A stretch of 42,267 bases of DNA. Origin: a virus. Its lineage: Duplodnaviria > Heunggongvirae > Uroviricota > Caudoviricetes. The notes under the pieces were generated by a model. That model was not told the DNA's origin, made no database searches, and saw nothing but the letters and a program-made list of their open reading frames with translations. A program made the position numbers and the translations under genes. Shown one piece after another: positions 27,456 through 33,994 of this stretch; position 1 is the first letter of the stretch, and each line of letters begins with the position of its first letter. The stretch lies in IMG/VR virus record IMGVR_UViG_2541047816_000004, positions 1-42,267 of that record; one strand, written 5' to 3'.

Positions 27456-27809
27456 CTACCCCAGATGAGTAATCCGAAGTTCATCCATACCACAGGTCCT
27501 GGCTATTCTGTTGTACTCCTGAACAAGAGCAAATAATTCTGAATTAGCAACCATGAACTCATCGCAAACCCTCTGTATAGCATCACTATTCAGAATAATA
27601 ACGTCTCTTCCCGAAAGACGATCAGGAGTACAGAACAAAACTGTCAAACGGCTGAAGGCCTTTGCTCGTGCTGCATTGACTATATCAATACGCTGCCTAA
27701 GGATGAAACACCCCGACGCCTCATCAATATTCACTCTACCCACACCATATGAATGATAAATATTTAATGCTGAAAAAACCATTAGACCGTATAACAAATA
27801 TTCAATCAA
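27456..27809 (-). CDS. Hypothetical ORF downstream of the tRNA cluster (uncertain)
   Basis: 117-aa ORF with TTG start and no clear SD. Confidence 0.3.
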   Translation of the reverse strand: MIEYLLYGLMVFSALNIYHSYGVGRVNIDEASGCFILRQRIDIVNAARAKAFSRLTVLFCTPDRLSGRDVIILNSDAIQRVCDEFMVANSELFALVQEYNRIARTCGMDELRITHLG

Positions 27810-27919
27810 TACTTAACAGAACTTTTATTTTTGACAAACATATAATATTTTCAACAATATCCTGAGCCAGGTATATTTCAGTATAAGGCTCTGCCGGAAG
27901 GAATCTGGAAGAATGAATA

Positions 27920-27996
27920 TGGCGCGCTGTACTGGATTCGAACCAGTGACCGATTGCTTAGAAGGCAATTGCTCTGTCCGGCTGAGCTAACAACGC
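27920..27996 (-). tRNA. tRNA-Arg (anticodon TCT)
   Basis: Hand-folded cloverleaf: 7-bp acceptor, GCTC/GAGC D-stem, ATTGC/GCAAT anticodon stem, loop CTTCTAA, TTCGAAT T-loop, encoded CCA. Confidence 0.8.
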
Positions 27997-28009
27997 TGAA
28001 TACCGATAA

Positions 28010-28090
28010 TGGACCGCCATCGGGGACCCGCCCCCCGCACCAACAACCCTGTTATCGTGTCGTCTGCTCTTCCTGATAAGCTAATGGCGG
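28010..28090 (-). tRNA. Degenerate tRNA-like sequence (possible tRNA pseudogene)
   Basis: Perfect 7-bp acceptor stem CCGCCAT/ATGGCGG plus T and CCA, D- and T-stems present, but no canonical anticodon arm and aberrant T-loop GGCGGGT. Confidence 0.3.
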
Positions 28091-31169: not shown

Positions 31170-31385
31170 CAGAATCCTTCCGGATAATTAGCTCTCCCCT
31201 TTAAGGGACCATCCCTCTTATCCCTGCGCGCTACTTAAGTATTTTTGATTCTATTCCGGCACCGTCCAGAACTTCAAATGCGTTGAAAATAAAAACAAAA
31301 ACCCGCCGAAGCGGGTTAAGTGCGGGTGCGTTGAGGATGCCTGACACATCAGAGGTGGCGAGGGATTTCTCCCTCGCCGGGTCTC

Positions 31386-31541
31386 TTACTCCTCAGGTTC
31401 GTAAGCTGTGAAGACAGCGACCTCCGTCTGGCCGGTTCGGAGTCGTACCTCGCAGAGGTCTTTCCTCGTTACCAGTGCCGTCACTATGACGGTTAAACAG
31501 ATGACGATCAGGGCGATTAACATCGCCTTTTGCTGCTTCAT
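31386..31541 (-). CDS. hokD: Hok/Gef-family type I toxin (HokD/RelF-like)
   Basis: MKQQKAMLIALIVICLTVIVTALVTRKDLCEVRLRTGQTEVAVFTAYEPEE, 51 aa, near-identical to HokD as recalled. Confidence 0.85.
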   Translation of the reverse strand: MKQQKAMLIALIVICLTVIVTALVTRKDLCEVRLRTGQTEVAVFTAYEPEE

Positions 31542-32089
31542 AGCCTGCTTCTCCTTGCCTTTCGGCACGTAAGAGGCTAACCTACATGTGTCTAGCATGA
31601 AATTGGCCTCAGATTAATGTTAAGCGTCTTGCAGGACGCGTAATGTTAACTGGGGCTTTTCTCTATCTGCCGTTGGTGTTATGCCCGAGGCAGATAGCCT
31701 CAAGCACCCGCAGCCATTCTACTTAACTACCGTTACCTCGCCAATGTGAAATCAGTCAGAAAGGCGATCCATAAGAACAATAGCAAGACAATAAATCGCC
31801 ATTACAGCCGTAATAGCCAGCGCACATTTGAGAACCAGCACCACAACCTCCTGTATTGGACGTACACCAGTCCTGATGAATATGAGGCTGTCTCGTCAGT
31901 GATTCAATACAACTATTGGGTATAGTTTCTCTGATTTTTTCTGTGGAAATGGGGCTCAACCACTAGTCATTTAATACGCAAAGTCCGATACAAGCTAACC
32001 TTCTAGTCCGCTTTGAGCGAAAAGCGGACGTTGGAAGTTTAAAACTCGCGAACTACTCAGCGTCCATTGATGCGTATTGTGTAACGTGA

Positions 32090-32734
32090 TTAACCACAGA
32101 TGATATTGAAACGTTCTCCGGAAATCTTGACCATAATGTCAGACAGTTCGCTGACGGCATGGGCTTCAGATGATCCCAGAGCGTCAGGCTGAACAGCTAT
32201 TACCGAAGCTCCACTTGCCAGCCCTGCTTTTATACCCGCAGATGCATCCTCAAATACCACGCATTCACCAGGCTCAAGGCCCAAAGCCAAAGCTGCTTTG
32301 ATGTAACCCTCGGGACTTGGTTTTCCCGTCATTACATCTTCTGCACACACCATTACTATGGGTAAGGGGAGATTAGCCGCTTTCATCCTGTTTTCTGCAA
32401 GCATTCTGCCTGCAGAAGTGACAAGTGCCCAGCTATCCGGTGGCAGTTTTGATAAGAGTGCAGCGGCCCCTTTTACTTCAGTAACGCCTTCTGTCATGTT
32501 GATTTCAACCTCTTCGAGTGAGGCCGCGATTTTATTGGTTTTCTCACCTGCACCAATAAAATGCGTCAGTGTATCAATCGTTTGCCGCCCGTGTGCGTAA
32601 GCAATCACAGCCTGAGTATCAAGACCGTATTCTGCACAAAAATCTCTCCAGACGCTTTCCACTACGGCTGTTGAATCAACCAGCGTACCGTCCATATCGA
32701 ATAAAAAACCCTTAGCGTTGAATATCATTGCCAT
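32090..32734 (-). CDS. HAD-superfamily hydrolase/phosphatase
   Basis: N-terminal FDMDGTLVDS (DxDGT) motif and C-terminal FEDASAGIKAG. Confidence 0.8.
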   Translation of the reverse strand: MAMIFNAKGFLFDMDGTLVDSTAVVESVWRDFCAEYGLDTQAVIAYAHGRQTIDTLTHFIGAGEKTNKIAASLEEVEINMTEGVTEVKGAAALLSKLPPDSWALVTSAGRMLAENRMKAANLPLPIVMVCAEDVMTGKPSPEGYIKAALALGLEPGECVVFEDASAGIKAGLASGASVIAVQPDALGSSEAHAVSELSDIMVKISGERFNIICG

Positions 32735-32757
32735 TCCTTAATGGTTGCAGAAGAAAG

Positions 32758-33396
32758 TTAATCAAACCATGTTTTTTCATCACCTTTCGCTACTCTCAGG
32801 CTGACAGCAATCTGCTCAGGCACAATTCTTGAAAGCGACAATTCAGGCAGGTCGTTGACATCAAAAAAATCAGCATCGAGTGACTCATGGCTGATTGACA
32901 GGCTGCCACCTACTTCTTCACAGAGAAAAATCAGCTTGTAAACATGCCAGGGTAAAGGCGGATGGCCGTGAAGATTACGATCCCAAACTCCCAATAGTTT
33001 AGTCACTCTGACTTTTAATCCGGTTTCTTCTTCGACTTCTCGACGCACAGCTTCAGAAGGTGTATCTCCAACATCTGCCCATCCGCCAGGAAGACTCCAT
33101 AATCCATCTGCAGCCTCTTTCACCATCAGAATACGATTATTACGCAGGATAAACGCACGCACATCTGTTTTGGGCGTCGCGTAACCCGTTTCCGATACAT
33201 GAAACAAATCATTGCGGCTAATATCAAACTGCGAACTCAGCAGTCCAGCGGCAATTTCACGCAAGGCTTCATAGCGTTCCTTGTCAAAGACGTCTTTTGA
33301 ATAGGTCAGGCCTGACTGCGCGAGGGCCTTTAGTCTCTGGGCAACAAAAATAAGCTTTTCTTGGGTCAACACTTCAGACATGTTTTTCATCTTCAT
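32758..33396 (-). CDS. NUDIX hydrolase with N-terminal extension
   Basis: Nudix box GGWADVGDTPSEAVRREVEEETGL. Confidence 0.8.
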   Translation of the reverse strand: MKMKNMSEVLTQEKLIFVAQRLKALAQSGLTYSKDVFDKERYEALREIAAGLLSSQFDISRNDLFHVSETGYATPKTDVRAFILRNNRILMVKEAADGLWSLPGGWADVGDTPSEAVRREVEEETGLKVRVTKLLGVWDRNLHGHPPLPWHVYKLIFLCEEVGGSLSISHESLDADFFDVNDLPELSLSRIVPEQIAVSLRVAKGDEKTWFD

Positions 33397-33592
33397 TTAT
33401 GTATTCAGAGTTCCTGTTAAGGATACTGCTCAATTCAATGAAGAATAACAAATGCATCTGGCACCTGCTATGTCCGCTTCTGGCACAAAGCGGACAACCA
33501 CGCCAGATCTACCCTGTGCCATGAAAAATGAGAATGTCAATTCACTCCTGAACTAATGCTTTTTAATCTAGTAACGTCTAAAATACCTAACA

Positions 33593-33994
33593 TTATCCCT
33601 GATAAAATGCCAGTATGCGCTGCATAACTTCACTCATCCGGCACTCGCGACAGATTATGTTTAGGCGACTGTCGTAGCGACGTATTTCTCCATCAGGTAA
33701 CGACCAGATAAGGTCCGGATCAACCACAGCTGTTTTCTTCACCTTTGCCCTCGATAGTTTTTTGCGGGCGTTTTGCCAGTCCTTACGCGCCTGTTCAGAC
33801 GGGAATAACCCGTAGCCGGAGTTGTATACATCGCCACTGGCTACCAGCTCTCTGGCAAGAACGCTCATCAGATATCTAGTCGCACCTGTTTTAGCTTCCA
33901 GTTGCCGTAACGTCTCACGACCGCTCTGGCGCACGAGTTCCACCACCTGCCCTTTAATTTTTTCCCGCTCTTCTTGTGTAAAAACTTTTGCCAC
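33593..33994 (-). CDS. Hypothetical protein, possible winged-helix DNA-binding
   Basis: 133-aa ORF between replication gene and NUDIX cassette. Confidence 0.4.
   Translation of the reverse strand: MAKVFTQEEREKIKGQVVELVRQSGRETLRQLEAKTGATRYLMSVLARELVASGDVYNSGYGLFPSEQARKDWQNARKKLSRAKVKKTAVVDPDLIWSLPDGEIRRYDSRLNIICRECRMSEVMQRILAFYQG

Follow-up and report, generated by a model that had tools for sequence, protein, structure and literature searches.

Why is a pair of genes for a Nudix hydrolase and a HAD phosphatase bordered on both sides by matching palindromes in a prophage, and what do these palindromes delimit? The locus lies in a stretch of caudoviral DNA of 42,267 nucleotides (IMG/VR record IMGVR_UViG_2541047816_000004, positions 1 to 42,267), to which we refer as the window and which belongs to a Rac/Qin-type lambdoid prophage of E. 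coli. The segment 32006-33495 is best read as one interchangeable cargo cassette in an accessory-gene slot of this prophage. Cargo and backbone recombine within the 24-bp palindromic sites at its borders, the two ends differ from each other, and the arrangement is common to unrelated phage families. The slot and its contents are composed as follows.

32006-32029, plus strand: border site of class A, GTCCGCTT TGAGCGAA AAGCGGAC, pointing inward
33472-33495, minus strand: border site of class B, pointing inward; the minus strand reads GTCCGCTT TGTGCCAG AAGCGGAC
32015-33487, minus strand: cargo proper, the portion that moves between backbones (7 mismatches in 1473 nt to the P2-like phage P2_4C9)
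32758-33396, minus strand: Nudix hydrolase gene, 212 amino acids (Pfam Nudix_N 7.6e-18, NUDIX 7.9e-19)
32090-32734, minus strand: HAD-IA phosphatase gene, 214 amino acids (HAD_2 2.2e-22)
33593-33994, minus strand: DUF977 gene, the right backbone flank of the slot and end of the replication module
31386-31709, minus strand: hokD/sok type I toxin-antitoxin locus, the left backbone flank of the slot

Cargo and backbone recombine within the border sites

A preliminary description of this DNA had noted a Nudix-HAD cassette with matching palindromes on both sides. We found both genes on the minus strand, separated by exactly 23 bp, as had been described. The left palindrome lies at the position given there, and the right one (plus strand GTCCGCTT CTGGCACA AAGCGGAC) lies at 33472-33495, one base to the right of the described 33471-33494. 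The pattern GTCCGCTT-N8-AAGCGGAC has just these two matches in the 42 kb, even with two mismatches allowed; the number expected by chance in the window is 0.01, and none of 100 shuffles gave two matches. When folded as single strands, the palindromes reach −9 to −11 kcal/mol each (z of about −4).

The same block, from palindrome centre to palindrome centre, recurs with 99.3% identity in unrelated phages and islands, which confirms that it is a discrete cassette with meaningful palindromes. In a phage collection, the P2-like phages P2_4C9 (Peduovirus) and 10W match the window at 99.3% over 32005-33495 and nowhere beyond. There, the cargo takes the place that fun(Z) has in P2, between the tail-fibre assembly gene G and the sheath gene FI. 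In an ungapped comparison of the window with the P2-like sequence, identity falls at the sites from 49-50 of 50 bases in each internal block to 16 of 50 and 11 of 50 just outside. Ten differences were counted inside, of which three affect an outer arm or the first base of a loop. The similarity begins and ends in the loops of the palindromes.

In total, we found at least five backbones with a near-identical cargo of about 1.49 kb: the lambdoid DUF977-hokD slot, the P2-like gpG-gpFI slot, the end of a lambdoid prophage near paoD, an integrase island and the contig L101. The flanks differ in each of the last three, and the copy in the integrase island has an internal deletion in the HAD gene. 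Searching 5426 complete E. coli genomes with the cassette and its flanks (a 1.7-kb query), we found at least 80% of the query in 19, and the cassette region in other contexts in 3 further genomes. At least four other cargos are common to different backbones in a like manner.

The junctions show which part of a site travels. On the left, the outer arm and the greater part of the loop vary with the backbone: the lambdoid slot has GTCCGCTT T, P2_4C9 has GTCTGCTT G, and GTCTGTTA, GTCTGCTA or CTCCGCTG are seen elsewhere. The part following the cargo is GAGCGAA AAGCGGAC. The right junction is the mirror image. For the class A site of the window, we assign the outer arm and the loop to the prophage backbone, and the last loop base and the inner arm to the cargo.

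Intrinsic terminators were rejected as an explanation of the palindromes: neither was called as one and neither is followed by a T run, the downstream sequences being TAGAAGG and AACCACG or their complements. An Rfam search with the palindromes matched no family, even at E-values up to 1. Moreover, transcription of the cargo runs towards site B in P2, but in the window it runs away from that site. Since a T run and an Rfam family are both missing and the orientation of the cargo relative to the sites varies, we also discarded a role as RNA elements. Primosome assembly sites have been reported to share the hexamer AAGCGG, which is also the arm of the palindromic site.

Site classes, slot contents and distribution of the motif

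Oriented by their loops, the sites follow the consensus AT GTCCGCTT TGNG(C/T)(C/G)AR AAGCGGAC AT, with the backbone on the 5′ side and the cargo on the 3′ side. Among the unique oriented sites of enterobacterial-type loci, we found two classes of loop, A (TGAGCGAR, 43 sites) and B (TGTGCCAR, 54 sites), and a single hybrid. In the lambdoid slot, class A adjoins hokD and class B adjoins DUF977. Neighbouring sites that face inward combined an A with a B site in 44 of 46 pairs, many of which are copies of the same slot, so that the independent exchange events are fewer than 46. Cassettes also stand in tandem arrays, in which an A site, a stretch of 11-18 bp and a B site come between one cassette and the next. 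Loci of 39-71% GC have all kept the site consensus, loop included.

We compared what the lambdoid slot contains in E. coli genomes and in some 30 viral contigs. Its inserts, 0.87-4.1 kb long, are of at least eight kinds, this cassette included, and all of them are held in the same invariant frame, 'GTCCGCTT TGAGCGA' ... 'TGGCACA AAGCGGAC'. From the last loop base onward the sequence is variable, also where the inner arms are degenerate (CAACGGAA, AAACAGCC, GACTATAT), and inner arms are present on unrelated cargos of 32-48% GC. In P2, the same two junctions surround fun(Z), and such sites are found nowhere else in the P2 genome. The phages L-413C, pro147 and P2_4E6b have kept the outer arm and the loop, with the inner arm present or not. 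The second P2 hotspot (old/tin) is without such sites.

Known functional sites of P2 (the Ogr activator site, the attP core and the replication origin) were rejected as an identity for the border sites, as they have other positions or other sequences. Yersinia phage P37 was likewise rejected as an example of an empty site: the whole slot is missing together with about 100 bp of its flanks, so that it is not a simple unoccupied site. Outside the sites of the P2-like slot, we also noticed imperfect inverted repeats of about 45 bp (..CTGACA..ATAGC..AATCTGACAG; L001, 3940-4001 and 5492-5545). P37 (L258) has neither the slot nor these repeats, as though the entire slot were an insertion.

Among the cargos of these slots, those of defence type are PDC-S39 (3e-102), a SIR2/ThsA-like gene with an adenosine deaminase gene, a HEPN protein and Fun(Z) of P2, which blocks T5 according to the record annotation. 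The SIR2 cargo, found in the lambdoid slot of three loci (L037, L012 and L041), has four genes, for SIR2 (ThsA-like, 9e-32), an ITPase/HAM1-like protein, adenosine deaminase (CARF_ADA-like, 1e-35) and a TetR regulator. It is nucleotide-centred and matched no complete known system. In two IMG/VR contigs (L035 and L110), a lambdoid-slot cargo of 2.9 kb harbours near its right end a gene for an IS110-family transposase of 425 amino acids, and the inner arm of site B is replaced at that end (GACTATAT | TTGGCACA AAGCGGAC). IS110/IS1111 elements target repetitive extragenic palindromic (REP) and attC hairpins.

Further loci were noted in passing. In a Qin-type prophage of E. coli CP128592 (L263, 3502-4516), a B-type site lies within the annotated 'ydfV' open reading frame and a degenerate A-type site follows flxA. 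Thus flxA, next to relBE-hokD, looks like a cassette of the same kind, and the ydfV reading frame may be spurious. A three-cassette array (L122, 7457-7654) adjoins isrK and C4 antisense RNA genes, as in a P1/P7-type immunity region, and represents a further type of backbone.

A scan of one genome per species gave at least 120 loci with the motif. Among the matches listed, most were from Alphaproteobacteria (Pseudolabrys, Xanthobacteraceae, Sphingomonas and Rhizobium), Xanthomonadales and other Proteobacteria. Genomes of these groups carry the palindrome in high copy number, in the intergenic spaces between ordinary chromosomal genes and up to 14 times in 8 kb; the copies are co-oriented within a locus and often form doublets 45 or 91 bp apart. 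Four contigs from alphaproteobacterial metagenome-assembled genomes (L203, L238, L156 and L220) have 8-14 co-oriented copies per 8 kb with frequent direct doublets, and spurious reading frames through their palindromes yield peptides that recur, among them GPKRTF and PKADI. E. coli stands in contrast: only 1787 of the 5426 genomes had a match to the motif, the median number of places being one and the highest seven, and some of the places are on plasmids.

Proposed exchange of cargo between slots

We propose that a polar palindromic site of 24 bp, present in two copies that both point inward, defines the slot; each copy is composed of an arm of 8-9 bp, a conserved asymmetric loop and a second arm. 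Cargo would be replaced by a double crossover, one in each loop, with another replicon bearing the same pair of sites, and the P2-like Z/fun slot would be one such exchange partner. As the A and B loops differ, the ends could not recombine with each other, so that exchange would be directional and the slot would never be left empty. An enzyme supplied in trans, specific for the site or for the hairpin, would most likely make the crossover. Inverted arms of 8-10 bp around an asymmetric centre of 6-8 bp that is identical between partners are the core-site geometry of tyrosine recombinases.

The length of the shared sequence bears on this step. Identity across the junctions extends over at most 15-28 nt, and between different backbones often only about 15 nt are uninterrupted. 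This is at or below the minimal pairing segments of Red-beta (23-27 bp) and RecA (31-34 bp; PMC3945230), which makes us lean towards an enzyme-catalysed event. In addition, a lack of empty or pseudogenised hotspots is reported in a recent preprint (10.64898/2026.02.27.708500), and two heterospecific sites, which would allow exchange without excision, fit this report. We hold with moderate confidence that the locus is a directional cassette-exchange slot with A and B sites that is served by an enzyme in trans and currently carries a two-step drain as cargo.

It is quite possible, if less than probable, that the palindromes are instead structural, REP-like hairpins and that cargos are swapped by low-frequency homologous recombination (RecET, Red or RecA) followed by selection, with no dedicated enzyme. 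This would agree with the absence of an associated recombinase, with the REP-like nature of the motif in Alphaproteobacteria and Xanthomonadales and with the RecE-type exonuclease gene carried by the prophage family of the window. A perfect site of 24-28 bp is just within the minimal pairing segment of Red-beta, and a requirement for identity would equally account for the absence of A/B hybrids. However, the uninterrupted identity between backbones is often below the minimal segments, and two rare events would be needed for each swap. Homologous recombination also leaves unexplained why inner arms are present on unrelated cargos of such different GC content, why the asymmetric loop is conserved over phyla-level GC ranges and why variation starts at the last loop base despite a degenerate inner arm.

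The proposal of an enzyme-driven exchange slot has several points against it. No recombinase or transposase recurs beside the sites (746 open reading frames within 400 bp, clustered from about 240 loci) and none is present in the cassette, although such a sample could easily miss a single RAYT per genome. An active double-strand recombinase would fit poorly with the high-copy, co-oriented motif of Alphaproteobacteria. The inner arms have decayed in several inserts, the mapping of crossovers is limited by few informative positions, and the redundancy of the 46 pairs lowers the number of independent events. As to the cargo, the substrates of both enzymes come from homologues only, the ordinary chromosomal relatives of the Nudix protein mean that it may be a passenger without a phage-related role, and the cassette showed neither a promoter nor a terminator of its own, as a moron would have, in a simple, strict consensus scan for sigma-70.

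Two enzyme models were rejected. Both loops share a central GC, from which a serine-invertase model predicts A/B hybrids and inversions, and these were not seen; a Hin/Gin-type invertase gene lies beside a single P2-like slot, between the A site and FI of an IMG/VR contig (L066, 2901-5759). Ends of the IS200/IS605 type would need the same loop on one strand in both hairpins, which is not the case. More tentatively, and on balance as an unlikely extension, unrelated temperate phage families may share a dedicated, integron-like cassette-exchange system with heterospecific polar sites and a host- or phage-encoded enzyme, the sites being related to the REP-like element of Alphaproteobacteria.

Like integron cassettes with attC sites, the units described here are short, promoter-poor and made of 1-3 genes, with imperfect palindromes at their borders, tandem arrays and hybrid junction sites. 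The attC core sites R''/R' have the consensus RYYYAAC ... GTTRRRY. In contrast to integrons, we found no such core sites, no IntI gene, no attI and no integrase beside the arrays. Moreover, attC is a single site at the 3′ end of a cassette, whereas here two inward-pointing 24-bp sites of different class delimit slots inside phage genomes. The pdif modules of Acinetobacter plasmids are bracketed by inverted XerC/XerD sites of about 28 bp (arm, spacer of 6-8 bp, arm). They resemble the present slots in having inverted recombinase-type sites as brackets and in the occurrence of the same module in different replicons, but nothing here points to Xer involvement, and the border site presumably has no resemblance in sequence to dif, cer or pdif.

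With REP elements and REPINs, the motif has in common that it is a short GC-rich palindrome which in some Proteobacteria is intergenic, high in copy number, arranged in doublets and co-oriented within a locus. Unlike in REPIN-RAYT systems, there is no 5′ tetranucleotide GTAG or GTGG (the flanking consensus is only A-T) and no RAYT gene was found within 400 bp. In E. coli, the motif is rare and confined to mobile elements, and half of each palindrome travels with the cargo, which also sets it apart from REP elements and REPINs.

The sfx sites of the R64 shufflon are asymmetric, with one conserved and one free arm, and are recombined by the tyrosine recombinase Rci (PMC4176322, PMC11852207). The 7-bp core of sfx, GTGCCAA, recurs exactly in the class B loop (for instance in P2, NC_001895, 15335-15358), and one conserved and one free arm are reminiscent of the conserved outer and decaying inner arms described here. 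On the other hand, the arms have no relation to the right arm of sfx, TCCGGTACGTGG (12-bp TCCGGTNNGTGG), the conserved arm is on the other side of the core, we found no rci gene, and shufflons invert segments rather than exchange them.

A precedent for transfer across phage families is the sopE cassette, which is common to the P2-like phage SopEPhi and lambda-like Salmonella phages (Mirold et al. 2001, as cited in PMC7725340). It too is a small accessory cassette; lambdoid phages carry it, and a P2-like phage has it in its gpG-gpFI region. In contrast to the slots described here, SopEPhi (AY319521) lacks an intact site of the present kind. What may be left of an A site (GTCC..TTTTCGCTCA; L262, about 27775-28022) is accompanied by an invertase fragment at the place where the contig L066 has its invertase gene.

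Hotspots, the rapid turnover of their cargo and near-identical cargo in other mobile elements have already been published (PMC9122126; 10.64898/2026.02.27.708500), and the P2 Z/fun hotspot, at the same G-FI locus as the P2-like slot described here, likewise shows rapid turnover and such near-identical cargo. According to the Moura de Sousa 2026 preprint (10.64898/2026.02.27.708500), the recombination processes behind this turnover 'still need to be elucidated'. Neither Rousset 2022 nor the preprint uses the words palindrome, inverted repeat or hairpin. In the literature searched, we found no description of the border palindromes, their polarity or their two classes, and older P2 and sopE papers may bear on this; a search with the literal sequences returned unrelated primers and shRNAs only. 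We therefore provisionally regard the border palindromes, their polarity and their two classes as new.

Defence and accessory genes in the hotspots of P2, P4 and lambdoid phages turn over faster than the phages themselves, and a short polar border site in two heterospecific classes offers a concrete, mutable handle on recombination at hotspots. Common to P2-like and lambdoid slots, the site gives the exact limits of a cargo that has travelled among five backbones. Border sites also provide a cheap means to find cargo, as anything between inward-facing A and B sites is a candidate accessory or defence module. The borders are a stronger result than the enzyme pair, which is itself of modest interest and extends a Nudix subfamily described as Gram-positive to enterobacteria and phages.

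The Nudix and HAD proteins

The closest solved relatives of the Nudix protein over its full length are the CDP-Chase of B. cereus (3q1p, 7e-50) and the UDP-X diphosphatase of S. pneumoniae (4hfq, 2e-37). Members of this subfamily have 200-210 amino acids, an N-terminal helix-loop-helix, an LPXLS motif and the box GXarXsm[E/D]UX2[S/T]X2EX3KEUXEEXGU (PMC3655063). The protein of the window has 212 amino acids, an N-terminal helical domain (Nudix_N), LPELS and a box that fits except for K to R. The Nudix superfamily is marked by the box GX5EX7REUXEEXGU with its catalytic glutamates; the translation reads GWADVGDTPSEAVRREVEEETGL at the box, with D for the first E as in the subfamily, and the catalytic residues (REVEEE) are intact. 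Judging from these features, it is a member of the CDP-Chase/UDP-X diphosphatase subfamily. The activities of this subfamily also include a 3′-5′ RNA exonuclease. Its two characterised members hydrolyse CDP-choline and UDP-linked peptidoglycan (cell-wall) precursors (PMC3655063). The subfamily has been described as Gram-positive only, whereas the present member is enterobacterial and phage-borne. Single chromosomal genes of the subfamily are widespread in Cedecea, Leclercia, Enterobacter, Pantoea, Kluyvera and others.

In the HAD protein, all motifs of subfamily IA are intact (DMDGT, VTSAG, GKPSPEGY and FEDASAG), and TIGR01509 matched above its cut-off. It is nearest to the sugar phosphatase of YfbT type and to the glycerol-3-phosphatase of yeast. 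The match to the YfbT/HxpA equivalog model NF008610 (1.2e-55) reached 188.3 bits, below the curated cut-off of 282 bits, so that the protein is a paralogue and not YfbT itself. Both proteins thus share their domain architecture and motifs with the known CDP-Chase/UDP-X Nudix and YfbT (HxpA)-type HAD enzymes.

A homologous pair in the same order and also adjacent, with identities of 80% (Nudix) and 72% (HAD), was found in an integrase island without palindromes. Such conservation indicates that the pair is a functional unit older than this cassette, and the absence of palindromes around it assigns these to the slot system and not to the gene pair. From their homologues, the two enzymes suggest a two-step drain of a nucleotide-activated precursor. 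The Nudix enzyme would split a nucleoside diphosphate linked to a group X, most likely a pyrimidine NDP-sugar or NDP-alcohol, into nucleoside monophosphate and X-phosphate. The HAD enzyme would then remove the phosphate from X-phosphate, which would make the loss irreversible.

What such a drain does for the phage or its host can be read in several ways. The preliminary description had suggested a counter-defence module that destroys immune messengers derived from ADP-ribose or cyclic nucleotides, or NAD-related metabolites. A solved relative (3o8s) and several database homologues are indeed named 'ADP-ribose pyrophosphatase', and ribose-5-phosphate would be a plausible substrate of a sugar phosphatase. 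These names are, however, untested annotations, and the nearest solved relatives act on CDP-choline and UDP-linked precursors; models specific for ADP-ribose (NudE/NudF) and for NAD diphosphatase gave no match near their cut-offs. NAD reconstitution of the NARP type was checked as well and is unrelated. Furthermore, the slot mostly carries cargo of defence and not of anti-defence type, and a survey of P2-like phages lists anti-defence genes in only 28 of 1511 P2 elements and leaves them out of its main analysis (10.64898/2026.02.27.708500).

The Nudix protein also has orthologues outside phages: its relatives at 67-84% identity are single chromosomal genes without a HAD partner, in Cedecea, Leclercia and others, a context resembling that of housekeeping genes. 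Findings of this sort had been named in the preliminary description as speaking against its reading. A search of other prophages, as had been proposed, did find the same pair together with the palindromes. The palindromes are absent from the homologous pair in the integrase island but present around the copies in other backbones, so that the association of palindromes and pair holds only in part. Taken together, we consider a counter-defence role very improbable.

A role in anti-phage defence or lysogenic conversion, by draining UDP-glucose, UDP-GlcNAc, a CDP-alcohol or a similar nucleotide-activated precursor, seems unlikely to us but deserves mention. The drain would alter a surface receptor or starve incoming T-even phages of the donor for DNA glucosylation. 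The other, defence-type cargos of the slots (Fun(Z), PDC-S39, SIR2/ThsA-like with adenosine deaminase, HEPN) and the activity of the characterised Nudix relatives on CDP-choline and UDP-linked envelope precursors are consistent with such a role. In PADLOC-DB 2.0, the Nudix protein matched only the candidate PDC-S07 (6.6e-10, over the Nudix fold). However, this match reflects generic Nudix-domain similarity, the HAD protein had no match, and the literature searched holds no phenotype data. The specific substrates are our proposal, and the chromosomal orthologues look like housekeeping genes.

Alternatively, the cargo could be a metabolic passenger from the chromosome of another enterobacterium with palindrome-flanked genes, without any role for the phage; this, too, we regard as doubtful. 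On an enterobacterial contig (L254), a Nudix gene of 84% identity stands alone between two B-type sites, among genes for a LysR regulator, a GST and a dehydrogenase, which suggests that the cargo was captured from a genome in which such sites flank chromosomal genes. The relatives at 67-70% are ordinary chromosomal genes, and the rarity of the cassette noted above is also in line with a passenger. By contrast, the cassette is intact at ≥99% in five backbones, both sets of catalytic motifs are intact and the pair has been kept as a unit at 72-80% identity.

Several complete E. coli chromosomes match the 1.7 kb around the cassette with 100% identity. The minus-strand neighbours annotated there are a YdaT-like gene, the replication protein O gene, DUF977, the Nudix and HAD genes, hokD, rem, DUF968, RusA and an antiterminator. 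The preliminary description had remarked on a lower GC content than in the flanks and on an AT-rich, promoter-like region upstream of the genes. The former amounts to a small dip only (0.464 in the cassette compared to 0.513 in the window, 0.501 in the left 2 kb and 0.471 in the right 2 kb), and the latter region had no match to the sigma-70 consensus. Directly adjoining the slot, a sok-type antisense RNA accompanies the hokD toxin reading frame (31386-31709, minus strand; Rfam sok, E = 2e-27), and next to it, at 31296-31377, we noticed a weak isrK-like match.

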